From the IMG/VR virus record IMGVR_UViG_3300013383_000248: DNA of 51,718 bases; one strand, given 5' to 3'. Made by a program: the position numbers and the translations under genes. Numbering within the stretch: the first letter of the stretch is position 1; every line of letters begins with the position of its first letter. Origin of the DNA: a virus. Below the pieces are notes generated by a model. That model was not told where the DNA came from. It made no database searches and worked only from the letters and a program-made list of their open reading frames with translations. Below are positions 1,934 to 2,638 of this stretch, piece by piece.

Positions 1934-2638
1934 TTAATTAAAATAATTATCATAAAATTGTTTAATATTTTTTAAAGTATCAAAATCAATAGTTTGATAA
2001 TTATCAGTTAAAGCTGTATCAGGATTTTGAGTTACTTCAATAATTAATCCATCTGCTCCAACAGCAAGGGCAGCCTTAGATAAAGGATAAACTAATTCTC
2101 TAATTCCAGTTCCATGACTTGGATCTACAATTACTTTATAGCCTTCTTTTTGTAAGAGAGGAACAGCAGCTAAATCTAATGTATTTCTTGTTGCTGTCTC
2201 AAATGTCTTAATTCCTCGTTCACATAAAATAATATCTTTTGCCCCAAATTTCCTAAGATATTCAGCAGCTCCTAAAAATTCTTTTATAGTCATTCCAAAT
2301 CCTCTTTTTAAGAGAATTGGTTTATTGACAGGAGCAATTTCTTTTAACATTTCAAAATTTTGACAATTACGAGAACCAATTTGAAGAATATCTATATCAT
2401 CATATAATGATAAATATTTGATAGCTACAATTTCACTTACAATTTTAAGCCCAGTTTCTTTTTTAATTTGAGCTAAAATTTTTAAACCTTCTTCGCGTAA
2501 TCCTTGAAAACTATCTGGAAATGTCCTTGGTTTAAAAGCTCCGGCACGAAAATATTCTATTCCCAATTCTTTACATCTATTGGCATCTACAATGCCTTTT
2601 TTATAACTCTCTAAAGAGCAAGGACCTACAATTAACAT
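1934..2638 (-). CDS. 3-deoxy-7-phosphoheptulonate (DAHP) synthase, class I-beta catalytic domain only (234 aa)
   Basis: motifs GPCS.ES, RAGAFKPRT.P.SFQG, LQIGSRN.QNF, KRG, ILCERG.KTFE..RNTLD, VDPSHG.G.RE colinear with Thermotoga/Pyrococcus-type DAHPS; AGGAGG RBS; regulatory N-terminal domain absent. Confidence 0.8.
   Translation of the reverse strand: MLIVGPCSLESYKKGIVDANRCKELGIEYFRAGAFKPRTFPDSFQGLREEGLKILAQIKKETGLKIVSEIVAIKYLSLYDDIDILQIGSRNCQNFEMLKEIAPVNKPILLKRGFGMTIKEFLGAAEYLRKFGAKDIILCERGIKTFETATRNTLDLAAVPLLQKEGYKVIVDPSHGTGIRELVYPLSKAALAVGADGLIIEVTQNPDTALTDNYQTIDFDTLKNIKQFYDNYFN

Follow-up and report, generated by a model that had tools for sequence, protein, structure and literature searches.

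A bare-barrel type I-beta DAHP synthase in the tRNA array of a TAG-recoded phage: a probable unregulated entry step to the shikimate pathway

[quoted passage not shown] DAHP synthase sets the entry of carbon into the shikimate pathway and is tightly regulated in cells. We think it probable that this bare barrel gives a phage that reads TAG as a sense codon an unregulated shikimate entry step during infection.

Family assignment, fold and active site

An earlier note, made from the sequence of the window, had assigned the protein to class I-beta DAHPS, and this assignment was confirmed by profile, PDB and structure searches. Pfam PF00793 (DAHP_synth_1) matches with E 6.7e-65 and 219 bits (cut-off 25.5), and the NCBIfam equivalog-domain model TIGR01361 (DAHP_synth_Bsub) gives 290.2 bits, above its cut-off of 267.75; the score with the full-length model NF006421 stays below the cut-off (311 against 335 bits) because 96 N-terminal profile positions are absent from the phage protein. 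A KDO8P synthase or NeuB-type sialic-acid synthase misread as a DAHPS has in its favour the shared fold, weak matches to NeuB (31 bits) and KDO8P_synth (100 bits), and the fact that the KDO8PS of A. aeolicus likewise begins almost at strand beta-1. However, the protein reaches 100.4 bits with KDO8P_synth (TIGR01362) against a cut-off of 314, 96 bits with PRK05198 (KDO8PS) against 242, and 52-100 bits with the KDO8PS models overall against cut-offs of 242-457, the NeuB/PseI models giving about 21-24 bits. In a PDB search the ten best solved relatives were all type I-beta DAHPS (E 3e-68 to 6e-61), and KDO8PS entries started only at E 1.6e-19. An AlphaFold2 (AF2) model built from 40 sequences (pLDDT 95.8) contains the full barrel, eight strands with their helices, and was superposed by Foldseek on the T. 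maritima DAHPS 1RZM (TM 0.97, rmsd 1.0 A, 233 columns) and the P. furiosus DAHPS 1ZCO (TM 0.95), with rmsd of 1.0-1.2 A over the two. Identity in the structural alignments is 48-50% to DAHPS and 30% to KDO8PS. The A. aeolicus KDO8PS (1FWN and others) is itself a metal-dependent member of the same superfamily whose residue 6 corresponds to phage residue 2, but at TM 0.90-0.92 it is only 30% identical, its acceptor is arabinose 5-phosphate, and the phage protein misses the profile cut-off by more than 200 bits. On the model scores, PDB E-values and structural-alignment identities, together with the KPRT motif described below, a KDO8PS or NeuB identity was rejected and is in our judgement extremely improbable; placement among KDO8PS, named in the earlier note as what would overturn its assignment, was not found. 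No structure of a viral I-beta DAHPS is contained in BFVD, where giant-virus KDO8PS come closest.

The active site was read by carrying T. maritima residue numbering over through a HMMER alignment. The metal ligands C102, H272, E298 and D309 of T. maritima correspond to phage C7, H175, E201 and D212, the KPRT motif (T. maritima K131-P132-R133-T134), whose loop binds erythrose 4-phosphate and phosphoenolpyruvate (PEP), to residues 36-39, and the PEP-binding residues R186, K207 and R237 to R90, K111 and R141. Among 30 members of the clade of short homologues described in the next section, C7, K36-P37-R38-T39, R90, K111, R141, H175 and D212 are invariant (30/30), and the metal ligand E201 is kept in 29, one sequence being without the Glu. 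KPRT and the three PEP-binding residues are invariant in the clade and in cellular sequences alike. The clade's own signature includes GFGMT in place of the corresponding cellular consensus. Hence the statement that all active-site motifs are present held up: the catalytic residues are complete, none of the four metal ligands has been lost, and the loop that had been singled out for telling DAHPS from KDO8PS reads KPRT. Catalytic competence as a DAHPS is accordingly predicted with high confidence. Compared with a 92%-identical homologue the gene has a dN/dS of 0.10 at dS 0.36, and compared with more distant homologues 0.15-0.29; these codon-level estimates show it to be under purifying selection.

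The truncated N-terminus and the lineage that carries it

The phage protein starts with strand beta-1 (MLIVGPC), from residue 1 onward. In the alignments its residue 2 falls opposite residue 97 of the DAHPS from T. maritima, 31 of 3PG8 (an engineered, truncated version of that enzyme), 26 of the P. furiosus protein and 41 of the A. pernix chain; the match covers only profile/chain positions 97-324 of 338, and 7-10 residues follow the last aligned helix. No regulatory module fused to the barrel, whether ACT/ferredoxin-like or chorismate mutase, was found in the 234 residues. The absence of an N-terminal regulatory domain had been seen before, and to this can be added both that an in-frame stop precludes any upstream addition and that the loss goes further than then described, the segment kept by the unregulated archaeal enzymes being gone as well. 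We take this absent segment to be the beta-hairpin that closes the bottom of the barrel. The short N-terminus is genuine and no start-codon artefact, since a TAA in frame lies immediately 5′ of the ATG, with more stops farther upstream; because this TAA adjoins the ATG, an N-terminal extension is impossible even with TAG read as sense. The AGGAGG ribosome-binding site that had been ascribed to the gene was read at 2646..2651 on the minus strand, 7 nt 5′ of the ATG, as its Shine-Dalgarno (SD) sequence, and a strong SD core precedes 18 of the 45 window ORFs against a background of 2.4%.

Several known enzymes resemble this state in part. The unregulated I-beta DAHPS of P. furiosus (1ZCO, 262 aa) and A. 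pernix (1VS1) are, like the phage protein, single-domain barrels without an allosteric module, sharing with it 48-49% identity (TM 0.93-0.95), the metal ligands and KPRT; in contrast to it they keep the N-terminal segment, and the phage enzyme has substitutions of its own and is viral and mesophilic. 3PG8 is the wild-type T. maritima DAHPS minus its ferredoxin-like regulatory domain and can be regarded as a laboratory analogue of the natural phage state, being barrel-only, 45-46% identical and superposable at TM 0.91, but it still has 30 residues ahead of the IIAGPC strand where the phage protein has none. The truncated T. maritima enzyme, in work by Cross and colleagues dated 2011, was reportedly active and had lost inhibition by Tyr. 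A barrel without an N-terminal cap is tolerated in the superfamily, as the A. aeolicus KDO8PS begins near beta-1. In a 262-aa relative (P0114, of the closest hairpin-bearing type) AF2 gave low confidence to the 19-residue N-terminal extension. Published work attributes I-beta allostery to modules appended to the barrel (PMC8408635). Since ACT-like/ferredoxin-like and chorismate-mutase domains are absent, the phage enzyme should not be shut off by Tyr/Phe or prephenate via the known I-beta module gating; that feedback of the module type is lacking is in our view very likely, if a shade less so than catalytic competence, and from the missing module and the published view of I-beta enzymes (PMC8408635) the enzyme would be feedback-insensitive.

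The truncation is not peculiar to one sequence. A search of 5.8 billion proteins yielded about 100 short clusters (230-240 aa, 56-92% identity to the phage DAHPS), and all of the ~99 clade clusters open M-[LFI]-I-[AVT]-G-P-C; the few longer members reflect start calls running upstream, in one case into an apparent translated tRNA gene. Cellular homologues appear from about 56% identity downward and have 20-130 extra N-terminal residues. The short proteins come out as a single monophyletic clade when 269 sequences are arranged in a neighbour-joining tree, and the truncated start is, judging by tree and alignment, a trait of the lineage. The clade occurs in many independent assemblies, with one protein indexed in 75 collection blocks, from which 24 contigs were read. 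In IMG/VR, 39 contigs encode I-beta DAHPS homologues. Many of these outside the clade, at 40-50% identity, also open M-x-I-A-GPC (bare-barrel homologues on viral contigs lie at loci L019, L024, L027, L028, L029, L034, L037, L038 and L042) and separate into two groups or more in a rough neighbour-joining tree; matches with long N-termini look cellular. The bare barrel hence appears to be the form that viral I-beta DAHPS usually takes, and its origin or spread among viruses may have been a repeated event. Reference collections added little: tblastn of the DAHPS against INPHARED gave at best ≤51% identity, mostly to short unannotated contigs resembling host fragments; neither megablast of 25 kb of the window nor tblastn of a 544-aa window ORF matched anything in INPHARED; and a single-sequence scan of GTDB returned six loci, the best (50% identity) in an Acidiferrales metagenome-assembled genome, with no clue to the host.

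The phage setting claimed in the earlier note is likewise well founded. A protein identical to the DAHPS is encoded on ENA contig ERZ27300205 k119_95604 (192,997 bp), on which the window corresponds to approximately 90.4-142.1 kb and which has phage-type genes on both sides of DAHPS. Relatives lie on contigs of 117, 134, 166, 181 and 187 kb, those of 166 and 181 kb in IMG/VR. Phage marks around DAHPS include PHROG matches, HNH and GIY-YIG endonucleases, Mtd_N proteins and a T4_Y16D-family protein, and the RNA ligase of the window is most similar to RNA ligases of 160-170 kb Bacillus siphophages; no terminase was found in the 52 kb window. TAG is the sole interruption in several genes of the window (those for the C5 methyltransferase, for a 481-aa protein and for MetK, and the HNH ORF), and in-frame TAG codons also occur within DAHPS orthologues (L016, 10001-10717; L055, 2344-3057). 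In L016 a TAG stands where the FQG motif of DAHPS has its invariant Gln, so TAG is read as Gln. The idea that DAHPS is a TAG-avoiding 'early, standard-code' gene was ruled out by the in-frame TAG codons of the L055 and L016 orthologues.

These observations also bear on whether DAHPS is host DNA wrongly placed in a viral contig by assembly, or a functionless passenger gene in decay. That the INPHARED tblastn matches at 47-51% identity are mostly short host-like fragments, and that several IMG/VR matches are full-length cellular-type genes, would fit such an origin. Against it, the exact protein is found on a 193 kb contig between phage genes, about 100 clusters from many independent assemblies share the same truncated start, dN/dS is 0.10, and the closest cellular homologues are only ~56% identical and in ordinary chromosomal context. 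Moreover, orthologues in relatives contain recoded TAG, one at an invariant Gln, and must therefore have evolved within a recoded phage lineage. Contamination and decay were rejected on the 193 kb phage context, the shared start, dN/dS and the in-gene TAG, and we give them next to no credence. Viral genes on both sides, selection and recoded TAG in orthologues, the marks expected of a phage auxiliary metabolic gene (AMG), were all found.

In its recoding and its size of ~193 kb the window phage matches the large TAG-recoded gut phages described by Borges et al. (bioRxiv 10.1101/2021.08.26.457843). An identical DAHPS is present in run SRR1747033, and SRR1747018_scaffold_13, the representative of Sapphire, comes from the same run series. 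TAG recoding, the ~193 kb size and the shared run series provide a circumstantial link to the Borges et al. clade (e.g., Sapphire, Jade). The closest cellular DAHPS is found on an anaerobe chromosome beside genes for FTHFS, SMC, an oxoacid:ferredoxin oxidoreductase and ComEC. This context and the SD usage suggest a Firmicutes-type host, and the host is probably an SD-using gut anaerobe of the Firmicutes.

The tRNA array and other genes of the window

The first 7 kb of the window carry a minus-strand series of tRNA and tRNA-like genes (Rfam, relaxed thresholds), the clear tRNAs including Val-UAC, Leu-UAG and a Ser-UGA-like gene. DAHPS does lie between tRNA genes, as had been reported, the upstream neighbour being the 3′ exon of a split tRNA and not a plain tRNA. 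On the downstream side, tRNA-Val(UAC) (1792..1869, minus strand; ARAGORN; Rfam tRNA 52.8 bits) lies 64 nt 3′ of the DAHPS stop. On the upstream side, the split-tRNA 3′ exon (~2701..2745, minus strand), comprising the anticodon-stem 3′ strand, variable loop, T arm, acceptor 3′ strand and an encoded CCA, ends 62 nt 5′ of the DAHPS ATG. The 5′ exon (~3474..3511, minus strand; acceptor 5′ strand GCGGTTG, D arm and anticodon-stem 5′ strand) lies ~720 nt from it. Whichever junction was tried, ARAGORN folded the exons joined in silico into a canonical cloverleaf, and the choice of splice junction decides between a Met, Ile, Lys and Gln anticodon. The interrupted tRNA upstream of DAHPS had no Rfam match to a group I intron. 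Its intervening sequence holds an HNH endonuclease ORF (2766..3206, minus strand; PHROG HNH families, E 1.5e-11), the frame of which is open upstream to ~3395 with 8 in-frame TAGs and in which a 146-aa gene was called on the source contig.

In four relatives (56-68% identity; L003, L007, L016, L017) DAHPS sits amid 21-35 same-strand tRNA genes within 20 kb. The protein-coding neighbours of these relatives vary (a protein of the T4_Y16D family, an nSTAND3 ATPase and DUF1660, with radical-SAM genes at a distance of 6 kb), and the tRNA array is the sole constant partner of DAHPS in the four. The window phage has five clean tRNAs only, the others being interrupted or odd; with five against 21-35 in the relatives, its array looks eroded or strongly invaded by mobile elements. 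Among the odd members, all on the minus strand, are two tRNA-like genes just under the Rfam tRNA gathering score, with anticodon-loop insertions of 68 nt (6335-6470) and 24 nt (4312-4403), a tRNA whose 6-nt anticodon loop, GTTAGT, could not be assigned by ARAGORN (6562-6632), and a 55-nt mini tRNA-like element without an anticodon arm (1465-1519; Rfam tRNA 38.6 bits). A Y RNA-like (YrlA) match at 1170-1285 on the same strand scores 43.8 bits against a gathering score of 69, and in it the T-arm module precedes the D-arm module. Despite the use of TAG as a sense codon, the window showed no clear suppressor tRNA with a CUA anticodon. In the relative L016, tRNAs with CTA and TTA anticodons are located at 17315-17604.

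Elsewhere in the window, a set of RNA-repair genes comprises the RNA ligase (32685-34055), an AAA_33 kinase-like protein (21894-22430), Metallophos (13908-14687) and RlaP (14882-15688). An S-adenosylmethionine (SAM) synthetase (MetK) of ~709 aa is encoded at 24744-26873 on the minus strand, its N-terminus reached only via one TAG readthrough. The C-terminal domain of this MetK is split by an intein-like insertion of ~330 aa, with Cys at the upstream junction and His-Asn then Cys downstream. A C5 methyltransferase gene (5070-6029) is interrupted by TAG. Two long paralogue-like proteins without a family match (7032-8477 and 17486-19219, minus strand) have a common motif, HPLDYL(S/T)(L/M)S(E/D)N then NW(R/D)SC, as well as Cys-rich C-terminal tails; one of them matches PHROG 18912, a family whose function is not known. 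Adjacent genes for a HAD-type 5′-3′ deoxyribonucleotidase-like protein and a nucleoside 2-deoxyribosyltransferase (44973-45900, minus strand; PF05014, E 2.4e-23) suggest that nucleotides are salvaged or bases exchanged. Screening 48 more ORFs of the window with Pfam and PHROG brought up no genes for CmoA/CmoB, folate, the shikimate pathway or chorismate use.

A proposed role in infection

From these results we infer the following course of events. DAHPS would probably share a transcript with the neighbouring tRNA genes, and its own strong SD site would direct translation; the resulting metal-dependent phage enzyme, if active, would open an ungated way into the shikimate pathway of the infected host; and host enzymes would convert the extra DAHP to chorismate and, from that, to aromatic amino acids or to other compounds derived from chorismate. 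As no further pathway gene turned up in the window or in the flanks of relatives, the host must supply the other six steps. That the purpose is aromatic amino-acid supply we rate as an even bet. Predicted window proteins contain 12.4% Phe+Tyr+Trp (Tyr 5.9%), which is above typical bacterial proteomes and would offer a simple, if weak, rationale for a demand for aromatics.

Several observations weigh against an unregulated shikimate entry step. Neither the 52 kb window, out of a genome of ~193 kb, nor the Pfam listings for 20 kb flanks in relatives showed any shikimate, chorismate-using or aromatic amino-acid gene, and DAHPS would be useful only where the host has the remaining six shikimate steps. 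No promoter-like site was found between the upstream tRNA exon and DAHPS, which plausibly fits co-transcription with the tRNAs but is no proof of it. Besides regulatory modules, the protein has lost the 25-40 residues before strand beta-1 that every solved I-beta DAHPS keeps. In a Prevotella enzyme, separating the DAH7PS and chorismate mutase domains strongly attenuated activity (PMC8408635), and by analogy activity of the bare barrel is not guaranteed. Finally, the clade departs from cellular enzymes near the active site: residue 40, after KPRT, is Phe in the phage DAHPS, variable in the clade and Ser in 153 of 167 cellular sequences; H203T, two residues past the metal-binding Glu, is found in 96% of the clade where 155 of 167 cellular sequences have His; and in M92C the clade has Cys for Met in RNxQNF (RNCQNF).

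These same substitutions, at residue 40, beside the metal Glu and in RNxQNF, are what would be expected near the substrate site if the acceptor had drifted to another aldose phosphate, the product being another 3-deoxy-ulosonate phosphate for use in glycans or in DNA/RNA modification. KDO8P and sialic acids are made by the same fold, and the P. furiosus I-beta enzyme is called substrate-ambiguous in the title of Schofield et al. (2005). However, KPRT, the loop named in the earlier note and the hallmark of enzymes using erythrose 4-phosphate, is invariant in the clade, as are the PEP-binding residues and, but for the one sequence without E201, the metal ligands; the DAHPS equivalog-domain cut-off is passed and those of KDO8PS, NeuB and PseI are missed by more than 200 bits; and no phosphatase, cytidylyltransferase or glycosyltransferase is consistently adjacent. 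We therefore regard a changed acceptor as quite unlikely.

A different question is whether DAHP made by the phage serves a product other than amino acids, such as 5-hydroxyuridine (ho5U) or 5-oxyacetyluridine and 5-methoxyuridine (cmo5U/mo5U) at tRNA U34, or para-aminobenzoate (pABA)/folate for nucleotides. DAHPS lies within the tRNA array in four of four relatives checked; the window tRNAs include Val-UAC, Leu-UAG and the Ser-UGA-like gene; nucleotide-metabolism genes are present; and the window encodes a SAM synthetase, the Cx-SAM needed for cmo5U being made from prephenate and SAM. Hydroxylation of tRNA U34 by TrhP requires prephenate (PMC6599085), and prephenate-dependent U34 modification has also been described elsewhere (PMC5909439). 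Nevertheless, no CmoA/CmoB/TrhP/TrhO-like, pab or folate gene was seen among the window ORFs, U34 tRNAs are expected regardless in an AT-rich phage, the tRNA arrays of large phages gather many unrelated small genes so that adjacency says little, and SAM synthetase has other uses, e.g., for the C5 methyltransferase at 5070-6029. A non-amino-acid product is in our estimation unlikely, and the specific version in which DAHPS is held in the array so that prephenate and SAM from the phage MetK serve U34 modification of phage tRNAs is a long shot. Were it true, a metabolic gene would serve the epitranscriptome of tRNAs in a phage that switches its code, instead of supplying amino acids in bulk.

A phage-borne DAHPS has some precedent, and the description of such a gene as unusual in a phage was only partly right. 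DAHPS has been noted as an AMG in Klebsiella phage KLB31 (PMC11845039), K01626 appears in the AMG list of a groundwater virome (PMC13303688), PHROG 5045 carries the DAHPS name, and the 39 IMG/VR contigs encode I-beta homologues. As in the present case, these reports concern a phage-borne first shikimate enzyme with a proposed role in aromatic amino-acid supply, but KLB31, K01626 and PHROG 5045 stand at the level of annotation, and for none of them is a bare barrel, a position in a tRNA array or a TAG-recoded genome reported. The match of the phage DAHPS to PHROG 5045 is weak (E 1.4e-24, 341-position profile) and KLB31 was absent from its INPHARED tblastn matches; the enzymes concerned are therefore distant and probably longer and of another type. 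In the literature we found no description of a hairpin-less I-beta subfamily, of its conservation in ~165-193 kb recoded gut phages, or of its position in tRNA arrays.

At 230-240 aa, the clade contains the shortest natural DAHPS found in this analysis and offers a natural experiment on the dispensability of the N-terminal segment. For the engineering of aromatic production, so compact a DAHPS, presumably free of regulation, would be a practical part as well. For the phages themselves, the retention of a regulation-free DAHPS across a lineage of abundant ~165-193 kb gut phages suggests that aromatics or chorismate products limit phage production in gut anaerobes, and that such phages can alter the aromatic-metabolite output of the gut bacteria they infect.

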